Assembly: GCA_946623785.1 (NCBI GenBank)
Contig: CAMORM010000001.1
Coordinates: 1,397 to 65,396 of the forward strand
DNA: 64,000 nt
Direction of reading: 5' to 3'
Source of the DNA: an uncultured Verrucomicrobiota bacterium
GTDB lineage: Bacteria > Verrucomicrobiota > Kiritimatiellia > RFP12 > UBA1067
The notes under the pieces are model-generated. The model made no database searches. It saw only the letters and a program-made list of their open reading frames with translations, and had not been told where the DNA came from. The translations under genes were made by a program, and so were the position numbers. Shown here piece after piece: positions 1,188 to 22,856 of the stretch (the stretch's first letter is position 1; each line of letters starts with the position of its first letter).

Positions 1188-1223
1188 GGTGCAGTTCGGT
1201 GCTATGGAGAATAGGGTGGCGTC
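1188..1223 (+). promoter_or_regulatory. conserved late-gene upstream motif GGTGCAGTTCGGTGC + TATGGAGAAT, copy 1
   Basis: the 39-nt intergenic gap between terminase and portal contains GGTGC-N5-GGTGC followed by a -10-like AT-rich element; same architecture at 9742 and 22813. Confidence 0.35.
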
Positions 1224-3773
1224 ATGAGCGAACAAGCGATCCAGAGCGGACTCGACGCCTTCAGCATAGCGATGGGGGCGAACCCGTCGCTTGGCTCGAC
1301 GGAGCTTCACGTCGGCGGCGTTCCGGGAGGGGCGCAGCTGACGCCCGGCCTTGCGATGCCGGTGATCGACCGGGATGGTCTGGATGGCTCGGAGAAGGAC
1401 GTTGAGAAGTCCGGCGAGGTCGTGCAGAGCGAGCCTCTGTGCGAACTGGCGAGGCATGTGAAGCGGGTCTTCGAGATCGCGAGGGTTGAGCGCGACAAGG
1501 CGCACGGCGTCACCGAGCGGCTGAACGAAGAGAAGCGGATGTTCAAGGGCGAGTACTCCGACATGGAGACGGACATCATCCGCAGCACGGGAGCCATCGG
1601 TGCGGACGGGCGTCCGGCGTTCTTCCAGCATCCGGCGGCGACGGTTCGCGGTCTTCGGTCGATGGCCGGGGACGTGTGGATGAACGGCGGTGACCTGCCG
1701 TTCACGCTGGACCCGACGCCGGACCCGGACATGCCGGAGGAGGTGACGGAGGTAGCGGTGCAGGAGGCGATGCTCGTCATCATCCAGCGCGAGGCGGCGA
1801 TCAAGAAGCTGGCGCAGACCGCGGCGGAGGCCGCAGCGGCGGCGGGGCAGAATCCGAACGATGCGTATGCGGCGGTGATGGCGGACCCGGACGCGCAGCC
1901 TCTGACGCCGCAGCAGATGGCGGTGCTGATGCCGCACAAGGTCGAGGAGGTCAAGAACCGCGTCAAGGAGGAGGCGCAGCAGCGGTGCGAGCTGATGTTC
2001 CGCAAGATCTCCGACCAGCTGACCGAGGGCGACTACGAGAAGGCGAAGGGGAAGTTCCTGGACTATCTGTGCCTGCACGGGACGGCGATCATGCGCGGTC
2101 CGGTGCCGAGGGTGAAGCGGCGTCAGGTGCGGAGGAAGACGAAGGACGGTGTGTGGACCATCAGGACGGAGGAGAAGACGGTCCTCTCGTTCGAGGCGAT
2201 CAATCCGTTCGACTGCTATCCGGCACCGGACTCGAGGGAGATCGGGGACTCGCCGCTGGTCATCAAGGTGAAGTTCTCGCCGAGCGACCTGCGTCTGTTC
2301 AGCAAGGCGAAGGGGAAGCTGTACAAGGGATGGAACGCGGACGCGGTGAACCGCATCCTTGCGGCGAACCCGCAGGGCGGCGTGGAGGCGACCCCGACGG
2401 CGAGCGACGCCGGGACGAGGGAGCACGAGGAGCTTTCGGACCGTCCGGCGCAGGCTACGCCGGAGAGCGGCAAGACGACCATCGACGCGCTTGAGTACTT
2501 CGGGGAGGCGAGGGGCAGCGAGCTGGTCGGCATCGGTCTGCGTCGCGATACGAACGGCAGGGAGATCGACCCGGAGGAGTACTACGACGTGAACTGCATC
2601 GTGGTGCAGGACGTGGTGGTGTACTGCCGGATCATCGAGCCGGAGATCGGCTGGCCTCTGAGCAAGGCGGTGTGCTTCCGCGACCCGGACTCGTGGTGGG
2701 GCGAGGGGCCGATCTGGAAGGCTAAGGACGCGTATAAGGTTCTGAACAGCTGCGGCCGCAACCTCATCGTGAACATGAGCGAGGCGGCCGGTGCGATGAT
2801 GGTGGTGAACACGAACCGCCTCGCCGCCGGGACGGACCTGAAGATCAGGCCGCACAAGGTATGGCCGATCGTGGACCCGCCGATGGGGGTGGCGTCGCAG
2901 CCAGGCGCTCCGGTGCAGATGCTCCAGGTCAACAGCAACTCGGGCGACCTGCTGAACATCTACAAGTTCTTCAAGACGGAGGTCGGCGACCTTGCCGGTG
3001 TTCCGTCCTACGCGTTCGGCTCCAATACGGGAAGCGCGTCCGCGATGCGGACCGCCTCGACGCTCTCGATGCTCTCGGAGGGAACGACGCGCGGCATCAA
3101 GGACATGCTCTTCAGCGTGGACCGCGAGGAGATGCGGCCCATCGTGATGAGGCTCTACGCCTGGAACATGCTCTACGACAAGGACGAGAGCATCAAGGGC
3201 GACATGACCTGCAACCCGGGCGGGCTGATGGGGCTCGTGCTGGTGGAGCAGGAGTACAACCGGATGGTGCAGTTCCTGAACCTCGCGAACAACGGCACGG
3301 ATTTGCAGATCGTGACGGTGCAGGGGCGCGCGATGATCTACCGCAAGATCGCGCAGATGCTGAAGATCAACCCGGACCGGGTGGTCGCGACGTACGAGCA
3401 GCTTCAGGAGAAGCAGCGGCTTGCGGACGTCCAGCAGAAGCTCCAGATCGCTCAGCAGCAGGCGGCCCTTGCCAACACGCAGGCCGGAATCGGCGGCGGC
3501 GACAACGGCGAGGTTCCGACCGATGGCCCGTCCACCACCGGAGCGGAGGGCCCGGTGCAGGGCGAGGCTCCGCGGCAGGGCGCGGCGGGCGGCGGCAATC
3601 CCGGCGGCTCGCAGCCATCGCAGGCCACGGCCGAGTCGGCGCTGTCCGGCGGACCGGGCGGAGGGCTCACTCCGTCGGCGCGCGGGACGATCCGGTCGAC
3701 CATCACGAATCCGCAGGCGCGGGCCGCGGCCGGGGCCAGGTCGGCGGCCACGAGGGGAGGGGGCGCGGAATGA
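1224..3773 (+). CDS. putative portal protein (849 aa) with a Gly/Ala/Pro-rich disordered C-terminus
   Basis: large protein directly after terminase, before scaffold and capsid genes; strong GC3 bias; function inferred from position only. Confidence 0.45.
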   Translation: MSEQAIQSGLDAFSIAMGANPSLGSTELHVGGVPGGAQLTPGLAMPVIDRDGLDGSEKDVEKSGEVVQSEPLCELARHVKRVFEIARVERDKAHGVTERLNEEKRMFKGEYSDMETDIIRSTGAIGADGRPAFFQHPAATVRGLRSMAGDVWMNGGDLPFTLDPTPDPDMPEEVTEVAVQEAMLVIIQREAAIKKLAQTAAEAAAAAGQNPNDAYAAVMADPDAQPLTPQQMAVLMPHKVEEVKNRVKEEAQQRCELMFRKISDQLTEGDYEKAKGKFLDYLCLHGTAIMRGPVPRVKRRQVRRKTKDGVWTIRTEEKTVLSFEAINPFDCYPAPDSREIGDSPLVIKVKFSPSDLRLFSKAKGKLYKGWNADAVNRILAANPQGGVEATPTASDAGTREHEELSDRPAQATPESGKTTIDALEYFGEARGSELVGIGLRRDTNGREIDPEEYYDVNCIVVQDVVVYCRIIEPEIGWPLSKAVCFRDPDSWWGEGPIWKAKDAYKVLNSCGRNLIVNMSEAAGAMMVVNTNRLAAGTDLKIRPHKVWPIVDPPMGVASQPGAPVQMLQVNSNSGDLLNIYKFFKTEVGDLAGVPSYAFGSNTGSASAMRTASTLSMLSEGTTRGIKDMLFSVDREEMRPIVMRLYAWNMLYDKDESIKGDMTCNPGGLMGLVLVEQEYNRMVQFLNLANNGTDLQIVTVQGRAMIYRKIAQMLKINPDRVVATYEQLQEKQRLADVQQKLQIAQQQAALANTQAGIGGGDNGEVPTDGPSTTGAEGPVQGEAPRQGAAGGGNPGGSQPSQATAESALSGGPGGGLTPSARGTIRSTITNPQARAAAGARSAATRGGGAE

Positions 3774-4048
3774 CCATCGACTTCAACAATCTTTCCGTGA
3801 AGGAGGCGCGCGTTCTCGCGACCTCCTCGGTTCAGGAGACGCTGCTCGGCATGATCGAGCCGCGCATCGACTCCATCCAGAAGCATCTTTCCGACATGGG
3901 CAGCGACCGCGAGGAACACCTCGCCGTCGGAGCCCTGTCGGCTCTCGCCGCGCTACGCGACGCTCTCAGGACCGCTCCCTCCGTAGTCGAGGCCGACGCC
4001 AAGGCCGCCGACGCGAAAGGGACATCGGCATTGGAGGGCTTCGTGTAG
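3770..4048 (+). CDS. hypothetical protein (92 aa)
   Basis: ATG overlaps the portal stop (ATGA); GGGGAGGGGG upstream as ribosome-binding site; sense-strand codon bias. Confidence 0.4.
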   Translation: MTIDFNNLSVKEARVLATSSVQETLLGMIEPRIDSIQKHLSDMGSDREEHLAVGALSALAALRDALRTAPSVVEADAKAADAKGTSALEGFV

Positions 4049-4160
4049 GCGAGGCAAAGTGGACTTCCGGAACTTCGCCGCGAGGCGCTCCGGCAGACCG
4101 ATGGAACATCCGCCGAATTTGGCAAGGCGGCTCCAGCAAACACGCAAGGACAAACCAAAC

Positions 4161-22191: not shown

Positions 22192-22192
22192 G

Positions 22193-22810
22193 ATGCCGAT
22201 CGTCTTCCACAACGGCAAGCTGCTCTTCACGGCGGACGGCAAGCTCGCGATGAGCGAGGACTGCTGCTGCTGCCTCGACCAAGCGGCAACGGCAGCACTA
22301 TATGTGCGATATACCCTGCTGCCATTCGTCCTTCCAGAAAACACATCGTGCGAAGAGTTCTACGGATATAATCTCAGGCCTGTCCATACGATTGATCTGT
22401 CTCCGGGCGGACATTCCTCGTCGTCTGGAAAGGACGAATGGATGGACGAGAAATGCGGCGCTCCAGGCGAGATGTCGTTCGTGGATGTAGCTCGTTCGTC
22501 GACCGGCAGCGACCCGGACGCCTTTCCTTCCGAATCGTCTCACATAGATGTGAGAGAGACATACTCTGCGAAAGTGTTCAGGAAGTCGATTGCGACGATA
22601 GCTGTATGGCCGACGATAGCGCCAGCATACGAGCATCAAATTGGTAAGGACTGCGAGACAAAGGACAGAAAGTGGCTGTGGTACGCGACTAAGTTCGAAT
22701 ACTCGCTGGACGGAAACGCATGGGCGCAGCCGGTATCGACCGGATGGAATGCGACAACAAGAACCTACACGGCGGCTAGGCCGCACACGATCACGATACG
22801 GATTCCCTGA
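22193..22810 (+). CDS. hypothetical protein (205 aa) with a CCCC motif
   Basis: start abuts the upstream stop; codon bias. Confidence 0.4.
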   Translation: MPIVFHNGKLLFTADGKLAMSEDCCCCLDQAATAALYVRYTLLPFVLPENTSCEEFYGYNLRPVHTIDLSPGGHSSSSGKDEWMDEKCGAPGEMSFVDVARSSTGSDPDAFPSESSHIDVRETYSAKVFRKSIATIAVWPTIAPAYEHQIGKDCETKDRKWLWYATKFEYSLDGNAWAQPVSTGWNATTRTYTAARPHTITIRIP

Positions 22811-22812
22811 CT

Positions 22813-22856
22813 GGTGCGATACGGTGCTGGGATAGACTAGCGGAAAGGACAGAGAA
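22813..22856 (+). promoter_or_regulatory. conserved upstream motif GGTGCGATACGGTGC + TAGACT, copy 3
   Basis: 46-nt intergenic gap; same GGTGC-N5-GGTGC architecture as the sites at 1188 and 9742. Confidence 0.35.

Follow-up and report, generated by a model that had tools for sequence, protein, structure and literature searches.

Tandem GGTGC repeats before virion and packaging genes of a temperate rumen phage: a probable class of phage-specific late promoters

What is the function of a near-identical element that recurs, in a densely packed phage genome, in the narrow gaps before structural genes? The question is raised by a 64,000-nucleotide stretch of DNA (here called the window), which corresponds to positions 1798 to 65797 of a 77,508-bp ruminant-metagenome contig, scaffold_687 of ena:ERZ28612940, representing a temperate phage genome of ~77.5 kb. 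Two GGTGC repeats, followed by a hexamer of the TAGAAT type, stand there before three genes, the first of which encodes the portal protein. An initial annotation, made from the sequence alone, read this element as a phage late promoter or activator-binding site, and the present analysis supports that reading in silico, through conservation of the element at the same gene junctions and through the packaging and virion genes that follow it. Judged from sequence comparisons, the element has five sites, which probably constitute a phage-specific class of late (morphogenesis) promoters.

RESULTS

Three exact sites in short intergenic gaps

We designate the sites P1 to P5. The three that are exact in both repeats have the sequences and positions that the initial annotation gave them, as follows.

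P2, 1188 to 1212, + strand, before the portal gene: GGTGC (1188-1192), AGTTC, GGTGC (1198-1202), TATG, GAGAAT (1207-1212), with the ATG at 1224; tccGGTGCagttcGGTGCtatgGAGAATagggtggcgtcATG

P3, 9742 to 9767, + strand, before gene 9777-10457: GGTGC (9742-9746), AGTCC, GGTGC (9752-9756), GCCTA, TAGAAT (9762-9767), with the ATG at 9777; tctGGTGCagtccGGTGCgcctaTAGAATctggacttgATG

P4, 22813 to 22838, + strand, before gene 22857-23471: GGTGC (22813-22817), GATAC, GGTGC (22823-22827), TGGGA, TAGACT (22833-22838), with the ATG at 22857; actGGTGCgatacGGTGCtgggaTAGACTagcggaaaggacagagaaATG

The gene behind P3 is the first of the presumed tail block; that behind P4 is followed by genes for 691- and 3864-amino-acid (aa) proteins, and an exact-protein look-up of its own product found no record.

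On both strands of the 64 kb, the pattern GGTGC-N5-GGTGC has exactly three exact matches, all on the + strand, against an expectation of 0.17 (mean of dinucleotide shuffles), and none of 100 shuffles reaches three. With one mismatch allowed there is no enrichment (6 found versus 6.06 expected), so that only the exact form is informative. Non-coding DNA makes up only 2.9% of the window, and room for an intergenic element of 31 nucleotides (nt) exists at no more than 1.7% of positions; all of the sites are nonetheless intergenic, and each has the orientation of the gene downstream. P2 to P4 occupy gaps of 39 to 46 nt, which they fill, starting 2 to 5 nt past the preceding stop codon, and the hexamer (GAGAAT, TAGAAT, and TAGACT, respectively) lies 4 to 5 nt downstream of the second repeat. 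The distance of 20 to 30 nt to the start codon that had been noted for these sites holds for the repeat block, which ends 21, 20, and 29 nt before the ATG at P2, P3, and P4; the hexamer ends 11, 9, and 18 nt before it. A pattern consisting of the proximal repeat plus the hexamer matches the window at 12 positions, of which only P2 to P5 are intergenic, and a position-weight-matrix scan of the window returned nothing of at least 12 bits beyond the known sites (shuffle maximum, 13.3).

Two further members of the family

All three sites listed in the initial annotation are real, but the list missed the first site, P1, which lies outside the window, so that there are five in all. The remaining one, P5, had been described as a weaker relative upstream of gene 53328-54047 and proves to be a true family member, the homologous sites in three relatives (L094, L095, and L096; relatives are referred to by such numbers throughout) having the repeats and hexamer of the family.

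P1, position 1021 of L075, before the large terminase gene and 777 nt to the left of window position 1: CTCCGGTGCTGGTCGGTGCTGGGGTAGTGT; in L075 and the relatives that carry it, the site reads ctccGGTGCtggtcGGTGCtggggTAGTGT

P5, 54083 to 54107, - strand, before gene 53328-54047: GGAGA (54107-54103), CTCC, GGTGC (54098-54094), AGGTG, TAGAAT (54088-54083)

L075 is the same contig as the window, positions 1798 to 19544 of the former being 100% identical to positions 1 to 17747 of the latter. P5 has a degenerate distal repeat and a 9-bp period, with the proximal GGTGC at the canonical 5 nt from the hexamer; its core (54098-54083, - strand) reads GGTGCAGGTGTAGAAT, and the site stands 35 nt before the ATG at 54047.

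P1, which is present in L075, L074/L008, L073/L076, and L001, lies ~350 nt upstream of the large terminase start, inside 1.3 kb of non-coding DNA that separates the divergent early and late arms (L075:77-1400; L008:6060-7432). A consensus scan found no canonical promoter in this region, and P1 sits where a promoter for the late operon is needed. The ~350-nt leader from P1 to the terminase gene is 95% conserved. The 1.3-kb region also contains tracts rich in G as well as short tandem repeats (three copies of CTGCATAGGTT in L008); it or the leader could hold a packaging site or a structured RNA, and an Rfam search of the leader gave no match. An element of the ops/RfaH type was considered and rejected: by eye, P1 matches 8 of the 10 specified ops positions, but the other sites do not.

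Conservation in close and mosaic relatives

The motif, whose absence from related phages had been named as grounds for giving up the promoter reading, was found in every close relative fetched, at the same gene junctions. P2 is identical in L001, L008, L073, and L075, and its four changes in L011 all fall between the repeats and the ribosome-binding site, with the hexamer reading GAAAAT in place of GAGAAT. At P3, L073 and L074 have AGCCC as the first spacer. L074 also has, directly after P3, an HNH_3 endonuclease gene (L074:16831-17421, equivalent to window position ~9777) that keeps the first ~25 nt of the original open reading frame (ORF) and looks like a homing-endonuclease insertion borrowing the promoter.

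The phages are highly mosaic and therefore provide natural experiments on the conservation of the motif. In L081, P3 (GGTGC TTGTC GGTGC ATGGG TAGAAT) stands behind an unrelated upstream gene. P4 reads GGTGC AATCC GGTGA ACGAG TAGACT in L079 and L081 and GGTGG CTCC GGTGC TGGGC TAGACT in L080, where it has a 9-bp period, as at P5. For P3 in L081 and for P4 in all three of these relatives, the upstream genes are unrelated to those of the window, and similarity starts at the first repeat (alignments A4 and A5). It likewise starts at the first repeat in the relatives with P5 (alignment A7), L094, L095, and L096, in which the pattern CGGTGA-N4-GGTGC-N5-TAGAAT persists amid divergent flanks and leaders, upstream of a protein that is 62 to 100% identical.

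When sites are compared pairwise at the same junction, the core positions (repeats and hexamer) differ in 8 of 208 cases and those of the spacers and upstream sequence in 73 of 173; the comparisons are not independent, so that a Fisher test overstates significance, but the contrast is still large. Spacers vary (AGTCC, AGCCC, and TTGTC for the first; GCCTA, ATGGG, TGGGA, ACGAG, and TGGGC for the second) while the repeat and hexamer columns are kept, and the 13 distinct instances yield the consensus [C/T]GGTG[C/A]-N3/4-C-GGTGC-N4/5-T-A-G-A-n-T. A pattern scan of IMG/VR returned 61 loci, which are single chance matches in unrelated contigs, the exceptions being L001 and a contig (L065/L067), itself unrelated, that has two identical copies.

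That mosaic junctions fall immediately upstream of the motif would also suit a non-transcriptional role, in which the sites are short linkers shared for module exchange or, alternatively, an RNA-level signal associated with translation starts. The nearness of the sites to start codons, the insertion of the HNH endonuclease gene just after P3 in L074, and the YqaJ-type recombination exonuclease that the phage encodes would likewise agree with such a role. Junctions beside promoters are, however, expected anyway if a gene and its promoter move together, and linkers leave unexplained the strand specificity, the conserved -10-like hexamer, and the variable spacers. Nor does an RNA signal account for the oriented -10-like hexamer; P2 to P4 show neither RNA structure nor complementarity (folding is no better than that of shuffles, with z-scores of 0 to +1), and the distance to the ATG is not conserved (350 nt for P1 and 35 nt for P5). 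Of the explanations considered, we give this one the slimmest chance.

Promoter-like features and a proposed mechanism

The hexamer has the composition of a sigma-70-type -10 element: among the 13 distinct instances, A at position 2 and T at position 6 are invariant (13/13 each), and T at position 1 occurs in 11. There is no -35 hexamer, the corresponding position reading TCCGGT, TCTGGT, or ACTGGT, nor is there a TG extension at -15/-14, and the sites were passed over by a consensus promoter scan. They differ from canonical promoters at other window positions (TTGAAA-17-TGcTATAAT at 54899-54871 and TTGACT-17-TATCAT at 38675-38647). Promoters of this kind would be weak on their own, since they have no -35 element, no TG extension, and imperfect hexamers. 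As a set, they show the arrangement of the phage Mu promoters controlled by protein C, namely, several late promoters with a common -10, without a -35, and with a common upstream element.

We propose that the hexamer is read as a -10 element by the host sigma-70-type holoenzyme. The repeats, one helical turn apart at about -32 to -18, would lie on one face of the DNA and be bound by a sequence-specific factor as two head-to-tail units; by replacing the missing -35 contact, this factor would switch the late genes on. The geometry would have to be somewhat flexible, with a repeat period of 9 to 10 bp and a distance to the -10 of 4 to 5 nt. Because the repeat word is specific to a clade (see below), the factor is more plausibly encoded by the phage than by the host. 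Initiation ~7 nt past the hexamer would place the start sites in the window at ~1219, ~9774, ~22845, and ~54076 (the last on the - strand) and, for P1, at ~1054 of the contig, giving predicted leaders of ~2 to 5 nt at P2 and P3, ~11 nt at P4, ~28 nt at P5, and ~350 nt at P1.

Could a different polymerase or sigma factor read both elements? A phage single-subunit RNA polymerase like that of SP6, host sigma-54, or a phage sigma factor would each be a candidate. Of the 16 positions of the SP6 promoter core, GGTGACACTATAGAAG, 12 agree with GGTGCGCCTATAGAAT, and the 3864-aa orphan protein could hide a polymerase; as for sigma-54, sites of the P5 type have GG-N9-TGC spacing. But sigma-54 promoters (TGGCAC-N5-TTGCW) have a strict GG-N10-GC spacing, which the GG-N10-TGC present at four of the five sites exceeds by one base; the sites with a 10-bp period give GG-N11-GC, and only the 9-bp variants (P5, and P4 in L080) fit. 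In no protein scanned against Pfam and PHROGs was an RNA polymerase or sigma domain found, and the invariant A and T of the hexamer would be left unexplained by another polymerase or by sigma-54. In relatives the ATG follows the hexamer by 6 to 7 nt, as suits a -10 of the sigma-70 type and leaderless initiation, and a virion-packaged polymerase would be expected to act on early genes, not late ones. We regard recognition by such an enzyme as very unlikely.

Returning to late promoters read by the sigma-70-type holoenzyme, each site heads a block of genes: the large terminase (P1), the portal and head genes (P2), the presumed tail genes (P3), three genes including that for the 3864-aa protein (P4), and, on the opposite strand, the probable small terminase (P5). 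The initial annotation had the element splitting the structural module into at least three transcription units. No terminators were found before P2 to P4, in the P1 leader, or after the sites. Since none precede P2 to P4, these sites would add internal starts to read-through from P1, boosting or restarting transcription within a long late transcript and producing nested transcripts rather than separate operons.

The conserved ~350-nt leader that follows P1 also fits a different scheme, in which the sites load an antiterminator of the Q/AlpA type, the repeats serving as its binding element and the hexamer as a sigma-dependent pause, and terminator resistance is conferred across the 36-kb late region. 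In the known cases (Q of lambda, 21, and 82; AlpA of Pseudomonas), the factor's element lies between -35 and -10 and works with a -10-like hexamer, and 21Q binds as two protomers (PMC9371919); in the present phage, a 141-aa protein (see below) has what by eye is a C-terminal helix-turn-helix similar to that of AlpA and excisionases. Those systems nevertheless require a complete promoter and a separate -10-like element at about -1 to +6, whereas each site here has one hexamer and, the flanks being unrelated between relatives, no conserved promoter upstream. They also have one site per late operon, not five, and here neither a Q or AlpA family match nor an intrinsic terminator, whether in the P1 leader or after the sites, was found. 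Antiterminator loading thus strikes us as improbable.

The same junctions in distant relatives

The GGTGC motif was not found in L002 or in L082 to L093, relatives with 27 to 37% portal identity, and the word is therefore specific to a clade. Before the portal gene, L084 (~9800-9868) has TTGACG-N16-TACATT-N7-ATG and L082 (~3050-3114) has TTGACG-N16-TAGTCT-N6-ATG; from these canonical promoters it follows that the junction is a promoter position family-wide and that -35 boxes are in use there. L002 (~7640-7680 and ~9830-9865) has GAGAAT-N7-ATG before the portal gene and TAGACT-N7-ATG before the terminase gene. The occurrence of TAnnnT 6 to 7 nt before the ATG in relatives suggests that late mRNAs in this phage family may be leaderless.

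One distant relative, L089 (contig ONRL01000002.1, 67.6 kb, labeled Lentisphaerae), has the same layout as the window with another repeat word. GTCAAG-N4-GTCAAG-N6-TATGAT precedes its terminase region (L089:7462-7491), and GTCAAG-N4-GTCAAG-N6-TAGAAT-N7-ATG leads into its portal gene (L089:9849-9878); these are the only two matches to the tandem GTCAAG pattern in 22 kb.

Candidates for the factor that reads the repeats

A phage-encoded late activator or sigma factor, which the initial annotation proposed to look for, was not identified among the 48 early-strand proteins searched against Pfam and PHROGs; nor did any of these proteins match a helix-turn-helix family, and relaxed searches of candidate regulators against Pfam, NCBIfam, and PDB sequences found no match. 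The only early protein common to the window (56747-57421) and L089 gives no indication of binding DNA. Small basic proteins are encoded in a conserved cluster directly after the small terminase gene, and two of them in particular were considered.

52379 to 52804, - strand: 141-aa orphan protein with a C-terminal excisionase/AlpA-like helix-turn-helix, recognized by eye

53031 to 53243: 70-aa protein, model with a pLDDT of 82, whose Foldseek matches are almost all ribbon-helix-helix proteins, although weak (E values, 0.65 to 9)

The 141-aa protein has no Pfam, NCBIfam, or PDB sequence match. Its identity to the versions in L094, L095, and L096 is 100, 99, and 89%, respectively, while its neighbors there, except in the nearly identical L094, are 18 to 64% identical; such conservation is unusually strong for a mosaic region. 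The P5 motif is the same in all three of these relatives, the window's own copy having the degenerate distal repeat. Because it is ultraconserved alongside the same P5 motif in three relatives, the 141-aa protein appears to be the best candidate, if an unproven one, for the reader of the repeats. The 70-aa protein is a less likely reader, since its presumed DNA-reading strand changes in L096. Among the other members of the cluster, a 73-aa protein is similar by eye to the 70-aa protein, and a 152-aa protein has two CxxC motifs.

The 70-aa protein would have a place in another explanation, by which the repeats are repressor operators on constitutive, -10-only promoters and a small ribbon-helix-helix protein, for example, silences the virion genes in the lysogen or early in infection. 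The phage is temperate (integrase at 37141-38394), the repeats, at about -32 to -18, fall across the core promoter between the -35 and -10 positions, where operators classically lie, and a ribbon-helix-helix-like protein of this kind is encoded near the small terminase gene. Binding to tandem repeats as side-by-side dimers is typical of ribbon-helix-helix proteins (the Arc, Mnt, MetJ, omega, and ParG families), and the relatives carry unregulated-looking canonical promoters at the portal junction. Without a -35 element or a TG extension, however, and with imperfect hexamers (GAGAAT, TAGTGT, and TAGACT), unrepressed activity should be low; moreover, no sites occur at early promoters, and L096 shares its motif with L094 and L095, yet its version of the 70-aa protein (32% identity) has a changed DNA-reading strand. 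On balance, we consider repression unlikely.

The gene behind P5

P5 is the sole site on the early strand, and what it precedes bears on whether the family is tied to late functions.

53328 to 54047, - strand: probable small terminase subunit, 239 aa, from structure-model matches

The AlphaFold2 model of this protein (mean pLDDT, 60) consists of a helix-turn-helix, a long helix, and a beta hairpin. Its top Foldseek matches in the PDB, 3zqq and 3hef, are small terminases (E value, 0.08; probability, 0.8), and matches in BFVD are named terminase small subunit (E value, 4e-3; probability, 1.0). There is no Pfam or PHROG match, and hhalign detected no similarity between the 239-aa candidate and the product of a 213-aa gene of L089. 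The structural evidence is weak but consistent, and the gene probably encodes the small terminase; if so, all five sites head packaging or virion genes, since the only one on the early strand precedes this gene. Directly after its stop codon and before the cluster of small DNA-binding-like proteins lies a weaker, canonical-like promoter match, TTGCGG-17-TACAAT (53314-53286, - strand; read by eye).

Two further observations concern the surroundings of P5. Within its leader (54030-54092, - strand), pairing is possible between UAGAAUCUCC and GGAGGUUCUA, the Shine-Dalgarno region (z-score of the fold, -2.5). Only read-through transcripts would contain the 5' arm, and initiation at P5 might therefore be needed for the small terminase to be translated; L095 has a comparable pairing, but L096 does not. 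Just upstream of P5 is a two-gene cassette of lower GC content (54109-54902, - strand), encoding a 106-aa protein and a membrane-protein-like one of 137 aa, with a strong canonical promoter of its own (the TTGAAA-17-TGcTATAAT at 54899-54871). The cassette resembles a moron that entered just upstream of the promoter of the small terminase, and the upstream gene differs between relatives.

Genome context and host

The + strand from 1 to 37157 is a densely packed virion and packaging module, which contains further structural proteins in addition to those listed here.

3 to 1184, + strand: C-terminus of the large terminase, 393 aa, 34 to 46% identical to same-position ORFs in relatives, with a weak TIGR01547 match

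1224 to 3773, + strand: portal, opening the head block after P2 (phrog_332, E value of 1.5e-32; homologues with the PF23899 SU10_portal domain)

5205 to 6200, + strand: major head protein

25563 to 37157, + strand: 3864-aa orphan ORF, the final gene of the virion module

37141 to 38394, - strand: integrase-like gene, with weak Phage_integrase matches

The large terminase is called as 842 aa in L074 (1287-3815) versus 526 aa in the window phage (L075:1401-2981), a difference of ~950 bp that might represent an intein or an inserted domain. The 3864-aa protein has homologues of 4104 to 4334 aa in L081 and L079 and no match in Pfam, PHROGs, or PDB sequences. Its gene prompted us to consider an N4-like phage, an assignment we rejected because the portal is of the SU10/HMO-2011 type and the giant protein itself has none of these matches. 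The integrase gene marks the phage as temperate. The remainder of the - strand holds small early genes, including those for a YqaJ exonuclease, PcfJ/PcfK, an SSB-like DUF3127 protein, and a DnaC-like loader. Inside one - strand gene (49020-49793), 11-bp tandem repeats (TTTTGTCTGGG and variants, + strand; ~49505-49580) encode a repeated PDKTQN peptide; the 257-aa product adjoins replication and recombination genes, and the repeats could be an iteron-type origin inside an initiator gene.

The window has a G+C content of ~61% and contains no tRNA genes. Megablast found no close phage relatives in GenBank, and the portal protein is only 22 to 27% identical to those of GenBank phages (CHOED, HMO-2011, and Rhizobium phages). 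Relatives with ~30% portal identity sit in metagenome-assembled genomes labeled Kiritimatiellia or Lentisphaerae, plus a few other labels, by which the host may be a bacterium of the Planctomycetes-Verrucomicrobia-Chlamydiae (PVC) group, a weak inference.

DISCUSSION

Several points weigh against a class of late promoters. Conservation in the closest relatives is largely uninformative, because the flanking coding DNA is also 95 to 99% identical. No homologue of a sigma factor, Mor/C, Ogr, RinA/ArpU, or Q was detected by Pfam or PHROGs among the early-strand proteins, some 11.7 kb outside the window, at 65798 to 77508 of the contig, having been seen only through relatives. For an activator, a site centered near -25 stands unusually near the -10; repressor operators and Q/AlpA binding elements are more typically found at that position. 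The predicted start at P2 would remove a Shine-Dalgarno-like sequence, and upstream of P3 there is only a weak match to one; with no good Shine-Dalgarno sequence behind either predicted start, translation would have to tolerate near-leaderless mRNAs. Finally, the host label comes solely from the binning of relatives with ~30% portal identity, and the promoter rules were drawn from the phage itself.

Set against the mosaic comparisons and the genes that follow the sites, these points leave late promoters probable. A more far-reaching proposal would combine a novel promoter architecture, a new family of phage-encoded promoter-specificity factors, PVC hosts, and near-leaderless late mRNAs. In it, two tandem hexamer repeats would abut the -10 at about -33 to -18, with a repeat word particular to each clade (CGGTGC here and GTCAAG in the contig binned as Lentisphaerae); the 141-aa orphan protein would be a possible example of the factor family, and the hosts would be uncultured Kiritimatiellia or Lentisphaeria. 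That all of this holds jointly is possible but doubtful.

If the sites are late promoters, the motif is a ready-made map of the late regulon for an uncultured lineage of rumen phages with almost no annotatable genes, and the small terminase belongs to the late genes despite its position on the early strand. CGGTGC-N4-CGGTGC would then serve as DNA bait for a new transcription factor, with GTCAAG as a second natural specificity for comparison. Exchange of modules at promoter boundaries would mean that genes travel with their own promoters, and there is a hint that the hosts, possibly Kiritimatiellia or Lentisphaerae, may translate leaderless or near-leaderless mRNAs. In general terms, the element would be one more case of the common strategy of joining a -10 to a phage-specific box, and the conceptual advance would be modest unless the factor represents a new family.

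That strategy is familiar from the middle promoters of T4, in which a sigma-70 -10 element is combined with a MotA box, a single 9-bp element near -30 that replaces the -35 and acts with AsiA ("sigma appropriation") on the middle genes of a lytic phage. The sites described here would likewise pair a -10 with a box of the phage-factor type in place of the -35, but the box is a tandem repeat, and no homologue of MotA or AsiA came to light. The sites also recall the stoperators of Cluster A mycobacteriophages (L5 gp71) in being asymmetric, in following the direction of transcription within narrow gaps between genes, and in belonging to a temperate phage. Stoperators are single 13-bp sites, ~24 to 30 per genome in both arms, that block elongation; here, by contrast, there are five sites with a -10-like hexamer, only before genes of late function. 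From Q and AlpA sites the element differs in lacking the full promoter, the second -10-like pause element, the downstream terminator, and the restriction to one site per operon.

Two systems come nearer. Mu has four promoters of late genes (Plys, PI, PP, and Pmom), with a -10 but no -35 and with a C-protein site overlapping the -35 region, which are used by the host holoenzyme (PMC2582627). The present phage resembles it in having several probable late promoters per genome, a -10 without a -35, and a common activator-type site. The Mu site, however, is a 16-bp imperfect dyad centered at -43.5, whereas here two direct repeats near -25 end 4 to 5 nt from the -10; there is neither such a dyad nor, among the early-strand proteins, a Mor/C homologue. 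In the Ltr superfamily of Gram-positive phages (RinA, LtrC, and ArpU), activator specificity at terS promoters both requires short phage-specific direct repeats and is fully conferred by them, packaging and morphogenesis genes are controlled from the small terminase on, and the repeat words differ between phages (PMC3753634). Here, too, there are repeats ahead of both terminase genes, the probable small one (P5) and the large one (P1), and the word changes from GGTGC in this phage to GTCAAG in L089. Ltr phages, though, have a single late promoter just after the activator gene, compared with five dispersed sites here, and their 7-nt repeats are placed upstream of an ordinary promoter instead of abutting the -10; the genes upstream of P5 (the 137-aa membrane-protein-like and 106-aa ones, which vary between relatives) include no activator of the Ltr family, with no ArpU- or sigma-like Pfam match. 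Different as the element is in geometry and in the number and dispersion of its sites, and without a recognizable activator family, its closest analogues appear to be the late promoters of Mu and the direct repeats of the RinA/LtrC/ArpU systems.

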